Part shown: one piece after another, positions 33,052 through 33,352 of the stretch | How positions within the stretch are numbered: the first letter of the stretch is position 1 | Layout of the letters: each line of letters starts with the position of its first letter | Assembly (NCBI RefSeq): GCF_054482525.1 | Contig: NZ_CM137006.1 | Strand: one strand, 5' to 3' | DNA: 64,000 nt | Translations under genes and position numbers: made by a program | The notes under the pieces: model-generated | What the model was told of the DNA's origin: nothing | Databases searched by the model: none | Seen by the model: only the letters and a program-made list of their open reading frames with translations

Positions 33052-33352
33052 AATACTCAAAGAAAGAAGTAATTTCAGAATGAAATTATCTGTGATGATT
33101 ATTAATACACTGCAGAGAAATAAAAAACAATCTGAAGCATGCTCTGAAACATCCTACTCTGTCACTCTAATGATAGCACCTTGCTCTTCTTATAAAGAAG
33201 GGAATAATTAAGAATATTAAATTTTCAAAGTTTCATCAACTTCACATCAAGAAATTAAAAAATTTAAACATTAATCTAAATAATAACAACCTGATCACAT
33301 AATCGGGTTTGACAACGAGTGACCTTCCATACCAGTTAATTAAGGATGATTT

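Follow-up and report, generated by a model that had tools for sequence, protein, structure and literature searches.

A two-part, AT-rich control region upstream of the OI-1 fimbrial operon of Escherichia coli, probably silenced by H-NS and without signs of a classical phase switch

We analysed a stretch of DNA of 64,000 nucleotides, here called the window, with a focus on the 301 bp (33052-33352) that separate the stop codon of espX1 (33051) from the start codon of a major pilin gene (ATG at 33353). This intergenic region is called the gap in the following. Positions 31300-34700 are 100% identical to the E. coli strain 19KM1776, a dog isolate, and the DNA identity to O157:H7 is 95.4% across espX1 to the chaperone gene. 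The annotations of 19KM1776 and O157:H7 have the gene order rpsT, espX1, pilin, chaperone, usher, last gene, nhaR, with all island genes on the same strand. The site between rpsT and nhaR, with espX1 followed by genes for a pilin, a chaperone, an usher, and a distal protein, identifies the locus as the already known fimbrial island O-island 1 (OI-1) of E. coli. OI-1 has been described as the putative fimbrial island z0020-z0025 of EHEC O157:H7; z0021 is fmrA, and the island thus codes for the motility repressor FmrA (PMC10877973; PMC9387321). The island comprises 6.9 kb, is strain-variable, and has a G+C content of 37%, compared with 52% for the backbone.

The gene upstream of the gap, espX1 (31630-33051, plus strand, 31.3% G+C), is annotated in the RefSeq entry of 19KM1776 as a pentapeptide-repeat type III effector gene, and the Pfam Pentapeptide_4 match of EspX1 is below the cutoff. 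The gene is very diverse between strains, with a pi value of 0.049 overall, 0.037 for codon positions 1 and 2, and 0.072 for position 3, which suggests relaxed or diversifying selection. In APEC O78 it is frameshifted. The spacer between rpsT and espX1 contains an Rfam match to the SAM-V riboswitch (31472-31537, minus strand; 32.4 bits versus a gathering score of 41, E = 0.016), which is probably a chance match. The rpsT-nhaR site (31146-38091) is a hotspot whose content differs between E. coli strains, with at least four versions, i.e. espX1 with the intact operon, espX1 with a deleted operon, genes for a GH31 glycosidase and an MFS transporter, and IS1. The glycosidase (a glycoside hydrolase) and the transporter are found in SE15 (phylogroup B2), where the insert has 48% G+C. 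K-12 has IS1 at the site, and the OI-1 locus is absent from K-12 and from B2 strains.

The pilin gene (33353-33886, plus strand) encodes a YehD-like protein of 177 aa with a signal peptide, which matches Pfam PF00419 (Fimbrial) above the cutoff; its best NCBIfam match is YehD (E = 2.7e-36), below the equivalog cutoff. It is followed by the gene for a PapD-type periplasmic chaperone (33936-34619, plus strand), which has PapD_N and PapD_C matches above the Pfam cutoffs and is StcB/YehC-like according to NCBIfam (best match StcB, 329 bits). The gene for the outer-membrane usher (34632-37082, plus strand) is intact. Its product matches Usher, PapC_N, and PapC_C above the Pfam cutoffs and scores 1490 bits against NF011763, the model of the Yeh/Stc-type subfamily (cutoff 933). 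The last operon gene (37095-38054, plus strand) encodes a protein of 319 aa with a signal peptide, for which neither a recognised domain nor a Pfam or PDB sequence match was found. All four fimbrial genes are thus intact in the window's strain. By its Pfam and NCBIfam profile matches, the operon is a Yeh/Stc-like chaperone-usher fimbrial operon of the gamma-4 clade, the clade in which Stc has been placed (PMC5809473). Scanning a genome collection with the pilin protein for relatives outside E. coli yielded only two contigs, both E. coli-like and in misbinned MAGs.

A run of seven A residues in the last gene (37386-37392) is a frameshift hotspot, with eight residues in O157:H7 and six in strain 2013C-3492. 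The A8 run of O157:H7 splits the gene into open reading frames (ORFs) of 108 aa and 227 aa, in the z0020/z0021 (fmrA) region. FmrA has been reported as a cytoplasmic flagellar repressor, whereas the intact protein of 319 aa has a signal peptide.

An earlier note, made from the sequence alone, had described the gap as about 300 bp of very AT-rich, non-coding DNA with A/T tracts. Length and composition agree with this description: the 301 bp have a G+C content of 28.9%, whereas the window as a whole has 50.2%, and just 0.9% of its 301-bp segments are equally AT-rich. Other stretches with 301-bp segments of 32% G+C or less are at 8115-8643, 22452-22915, and 58347-58692. Tracts of A or T are not enriched in the gap. 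The gap has three homopolymer runs of at least 4 nt, and composition-matched shuffles have 6.6 ± 2.2, so that these runs are depleted if anything; runs of 8-17 nt occur solely as mixed A/T. The gap is also not a discrete AT-rich element. Its AT-richness is common to a block of about 2.2 kb (31270-33490) that is AT-rich without interruption and consists of the rpsT-espX1 spacer, espX1 as the bulk, and the gap at the 3′ end.

The non-coding status was likewise borne out. The gap contains a single plus-strand ORF (33080-33211, 43 aa), which is not preceded by a ribosome-binding site. Its codon 10 is a stop codon in O157:H7, and a stop also interrupts it in strain YZMc3-1; due to these stop codons it was dropped as a gene candidate. 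An Rfam scan of 30500-34500 with a permissive threshold gave no match in the gap, and only sub-threshold matches upstream of espX1.

The gap consists of two parts that differ in conservation, as seen in an alignment of eight strains with the full operon and five strains with a deletion (see below). The distal part (33052-33230) is a fast-evolving spacer in which no conserved element was found. For the eight full-length strains, 25 of its 179 sites are variable, compared with 80 of the 474 third codon positions of espX1, and with all 13 strains the values are 35 of 199 sites (33052-33250) and 97 of 474 third positions (p = 0.46). Some strains have an indel of 8 bp at 33219-33226. The distal 180 bp or so therefore look like an unconstrained AT-rich spacer that continues the espX1 block.

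The proximal part (33231-33352) is a conserved block, likely containing the core promoter, the 5′-UTR, and the ribosome-binding site of the operon. Only 2 of its 122 sites are variable in the eight full-length strains, compared with 40 of the 406 third positions of the pilin and chaperone genes (Fisher p = 0.0018; the conservation p-values are indicative only, because the aligned sequences are related). For the section 33251-33308, which can be compared in all 13 strains, 2 of 58 sites are variable, with equally indicative values of p = 0.005 versus the distal part and p = 0.0006 versus the espX1 third positions. The difference extends to the population level: an identity of 99% or more is seen for the proximal 122 bp in 2,310 of 3,630 genomes, and for a distal probe of equal length in just 11 of 3,629. 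A conservation that exceeds that of neighbouring synonymous sites is an argument that the last 120 bp or so are under purifying selection. The pilin and chaperone genes share the low diversity of the block, and a recombination boundary near 33230 could contribute to it, partly in place of selection.

Reading the sequence upstream of the pilin ATG directly, we found a Shine-Dalgarno motif (AAGGA, 33342-33346, plus strand) at a distance of 6 nt. Promoter prediction, which the earlier note had proposed, yielded two weak sigma-70 candidates on the plus strand, both within the conserved block. Candidate P1 (33255-33284) has the structure TTAAAA-18 nt-AATAAT with a -10 box at 33279-33284; its score of 8.98 is no better than those of shuffles of the same composition (mean 9.9). 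Candidate P2 (33275-33303) has the structure TCTAAA-17 nt-CATAAT, a -10 box at 33298-33303, and a score of 6.99. For P2, an A/T run (33252-33268) is located at the position of an UP element, and the predicted start is near 33310. In both the consensus and the PWM scan, no candidate outscored shuffled sequence, and for this reason the promoter position is inferred, as is the silencing discussed below. No exact match to the IHF consensus WATCAANNNNTTR is present in the gap. A terminator scan revealed no intrinsic terminator between espX1 and the pilin gene. The minimum free energy and centroid folds contain a hairpin with an 8-bp stem, CTCTTCTT-ATA-AAGAAGGG (33184-33202, plus strand). It was rejected as an espX1 terminator, having no U-tract and not being conserved, with uncompensated changes at the stem positions 33189 and 33202 in other strains.

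The earlier note had proposed that the gap harbours a silenced or phase-controlled promoter. Two classical mechanisms of fimbrial phase variation were considered, i.e. inversion of a promoter element as in fimS and a Dam/Lrp methylation switch as in pap. For the latter, two GATC sites about 100 bp apart would be expected upstream of the promoter. A search for such a pair, which had also been suggested, gave a single Dam site in the gap (33293-33296); the next GATC follows after 132 bp, at 33425, and already belongs to the pilin gene. The island has no papI/papB-like genes among its ORFs and annotations, either in the interval that separates espX1 from the pilin gene or in the rest.

Concerning inversion, no conserved inverted repeats bounding the gap were found, in line with the visual impression recorded in the earlier note. 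The longest perfect inverted repeat has arms of 12 nt (33197-33208 and 33365-33376), a length that is reached by 3% of the shuffles. The right arm corresponds to pilin codons 5-8 and is invariant, and the left arm carries uncompensated substitutions in six of the eight strains, so that we regard the repeat as a chance occurrence. A long-range RNA pairing of 33194-33208 with 33365-33379 was dropped as well because the substitutions are uncompensated. The fimS repeat TTGGGGCCA is absent from the region, and there is no fimB/fimE-like recombinase gene within 6 kb, where the annotated genes are ispH, fkpB, lspA, ileS, ribF, yaaY, rpsT, espX1, the four fimbrial genes, nhaR, and nhaA.

In three BLAST searches, matches were obtained for about 3,630 of the 5,426 complete E. 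coli genomes that served as the database. The full region is covered collinearly in 1,202 of them, and nearly all others end at the deletion junction, save for isolated shorter matches. A comparison of orientation among assemblies, a further suggestion of the earlier note, did not uncover a second orientation: among the sampled matches from the roughly 3,630 genomes, each is a single collinear piece on one strand, and no inverted copy is present. With one GATC, no conserved repeats, no recombinase gene, and no inverted copy, both classical fimbrial phase mechanisms are unsupported. Of the original proposal, the phase-controlled half was thus not upheld, while the silenced half is plausible and has indirect support with respect to H-NS (see below).

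The deletion mentioned above removes 2,445 bp (33309-35753) and has a 3-nt microhomology (GGT); the alignment stops at 33308 and resumes at 35754. It is carried by about two-thirds of the espX1-carrying E. coli genomes, in which 44 bp at the proximal end of the gap are lost together with the genes for pilin and chaperone and with codons 1-374 of the usher gene. All six deletion strains that were inspected share exactly the same junction, suggesting that the deletion happened once, in a common ancestor. About 2,400 genomes without a pilin and a chaperone gene and with only half of the usher gene have kept the conserved block up to 33308, and the distal operon gene is intact in two of the six inspected deletion strains. 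IAI1 and H6 are strains of the deletion type in which this gene is intact. The retained block might be a still-active promoter that drives the distal gene of the FmrA region alone, although we regard this as improbable. If true, the deletion would not be a plain inactivation: what had been a fimbrial operon would have become a separate unit for the control of motility. Operon disruption has also occurred by other means. Strain EC590 contains an IS5-like transposase pseudogene of the IS903B family about 130 bp past the chaperone gene, at the expected start of the usher gene (3550-4001 of the EC590 locus), and this insertion is a further independent route of disruption.

Several observations bear on silencing by H-NS. 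The gap is AT-rich in comparison to its host (28.9% versus 52% G+C in the backbone) and belongs to strain-variable DNA, as is characteristic of H-NS-silenced promoters. Cryptic chaperone-usher operons of E. coli are typically repressed by H-NS (Wurpel 2013, PMC3559732), and cryptic chaperone-usher fimbriae are weakly expressed in the laboratory (PMC5809473). The ChAP-seq results reported in Higashi 2016 (PMC4720273) place nhaR and rpsT in the set of core genes with H-NS binding in only one or two of three strains, and the signal is ascribed there to the neighbouring inserted segment. The relevant statements do not name the strain that gives the signal and do not resolve the 301-bp gap. In SE11 the insert is ECSE_0018-0020, the deletion form of the OI-1 locus, with 35% G+C. 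The published ChAP-seq data thus indirectly support an occupancy of the OI-1 island by H-NS. The high-affinity H-NS motif TCGATAAATT is not enriched in the gap (six matches with up to three mismatches, compared with 6.7 in shuffles), and TpA steps are fewer than expected; both results are weak evidence either way.

Deletion of z0021 or of the whole OI-1 in O157:H7 has been reported to result in higher motility (PMC10877973; PMC9387321), and therefore at least the distal gene is expressed under laboratory conditions. Either silencing is incomplete or the distal gene has its own promoter. Our literature search retrieved no published data on derepression of the OI-1 operon in an hns mutant and no published characterisation of its upstream region, and the text of Wurpel 2013 (PMC3559732) does not name the locus by its flanking genes.

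Taken together, the gap is probably an ordinary two-part control region of the OI-1 operon, most likely silenced by H-NS and without a phase switch. This interpretation builds on the direct analysis of anatomy, composition, conservation pattern, missing switch features, and population structure. A weak sigma-70 promoter would be located in the proximal 120 bp or so, together with a short 5′-UTR and the ribosome-binding site of the operon. Expression would be kept low by H-NS that covers all 2.2 kb of the AT-rich block, from espX1 to the beginning of the pilin gene, in the manner described for other cryptic chaperone-usher operons of E. coli, and neither DNA inversion nor a Dam/Lrp phase switch would act at the gap.

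Four other interpretations have to be weighed against this model. The fimbrial genes might have no promoter of their own and be transcribed by read-through from the espX1 promoter, in which case the gap would be an intercistronic spacer or the espX1 3′-UTR. The common orientation of all genes, the lack of an intrinsic terminator upstream of the pilin gene, the only stable hairpin being non-conserved and devoid of a U-tract, and the failure of any predicted promoter to stand out are all compatible with read-through. However, a passive spacer would not be expected to surpass synonymous sites in conservation, as the proximal 122 bp do, and an AT-rich untranslated stretch of 301 bp would likely be a substrate for Rho termination. 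In addition, the sharp drop in diversity near 33230 suggests that espX1 and the operon are separate evolutionary units, and read-through as the sole source of transcription is therefore judged unlikely. About the same degree of doubt applies to the view that the region is an evolutionary relic without a current regulatory role, whose conservation stems from shared ancestry or from a recombination boundary. Decay of the locus is indeed widespread, as seen from the 2,445-bp deletion in about two-thirds of the espX1-carrying genomes, the stop codon in the usher gene and the frameshift in O157:H7, the IS903B-type element behind the chaperone gene of EC590, and the absence of the locus from K-12 and B2 strains. 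Nevertheless, all four genes are intact in the window's strain, and the proximal block not only outdoes the synonymous sites of neighbour genes with equally low diversity, it also stays conserved in the deletion strains.

The remaining two alternatives are considerably less probable. A small RNA or a small protein encoded in the gap is very unlikely. The 43-codon ORF exists and the RNA fold of 33170-33420 has a z-value of -1.95, but the ORF has no Shine-Dalgarno motif and is interrupted in O157:H7 and YZMc3-1, no Rfam family matches the gap, the fold of the whole gap has a z-value of only -0.65, and the pairing behind the lower value is the non-conserved inverted repeat. The probability of a phase switch, be it an invertible promoter element of the fimS type or a methylation switch of the pap type, is estimated to be very low. 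It is true that the 12-nt repeat, rarely matched in shuffles (3%), brackets the conserved block together with the start codon, and that the lone GATC adjoins a candidate -10 box. These two features are outweighed by the mutated left arm of the repeat (uncompensated in six of eight strains) opposite an invariant, coding right arm, by the absence of TTGGGGCCA and of any recombinase or papI/papB-like gene within 6 kb, by the presence of one GATC upstream of the gene where pap needs two, and by the single, collinear nature of the matches sampled from about 3,630 genomes. We therefore favour the two-part control region with probable silencing by H-NS.

The locus was already known, and the regulatory logic proposed here is standard for cryptic fimbriae, so that the significance beyond annotation is small. 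The analysis fixes the region as the control region of the OI-1 fimbrial operon, narrows its functional part to about 120 bp, and leaves both classical fimbrial phase switches unsupported. It also reveals that most espX1-carrying E. coli have a deletion that starts inside the gap. For work on OI-1, FmrA, and cryptic fimbriae, it offers a pointer to strains with four intact genes, and 33231-33352 is the place to seek the promoter and its control by H-NS or an anti-silencer.

Similar DNA was not found elsewhere in E. coli genomes, with a median of one match per genome (BLAST, sensitivity of about 65-70%), and we compared the region with four known systems. It resembles the pap switch and fimS of type 1 fimbriae in that roughly 300 bp of non-coding DNA immediately precede a major pilin gene; in contrast, none of the defining features of these switches is present in the gap. 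The stc operon of Salmonella (gamma-4) is closer, having in common the chaperone with StcB as the best match, the same usher subfamily model, and the layout of four genes. All matches are below the equivalog cutoffs, and stc is thus a relative at the level of a paralogue, not an orthologue. The cryptic operons of K-12 (yeh, yad, yra, sfm, ycb, and others), which are H-NS-silenced (Korea et al. 2010, cited in PMC3559732), share the AT-rich upstream region, the horizontal acquisition, the variability between strains, and the YehD/YehC/YehB-like pilin, chaperone, and usher. They differ in that H-NS dependence was shown there, whereas we infer it here, and in that the AT-rich block of OI-1 is shared with an upstream effector gene. 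The most similar system is OI-1 of EHEC O157:H7 EDL933, which has the same rpsT-nhaR site and the same gene order (Allison et al. 2012, via PMC10877973 and PMC9387321). Its gap also comprises 301 bp and aligns without indels. The difference lies in the genes, as the usher gene of O157:H7 has an internal stop codon and its last gene is frameshifted (A8 versus A7), whereas both are intact here.
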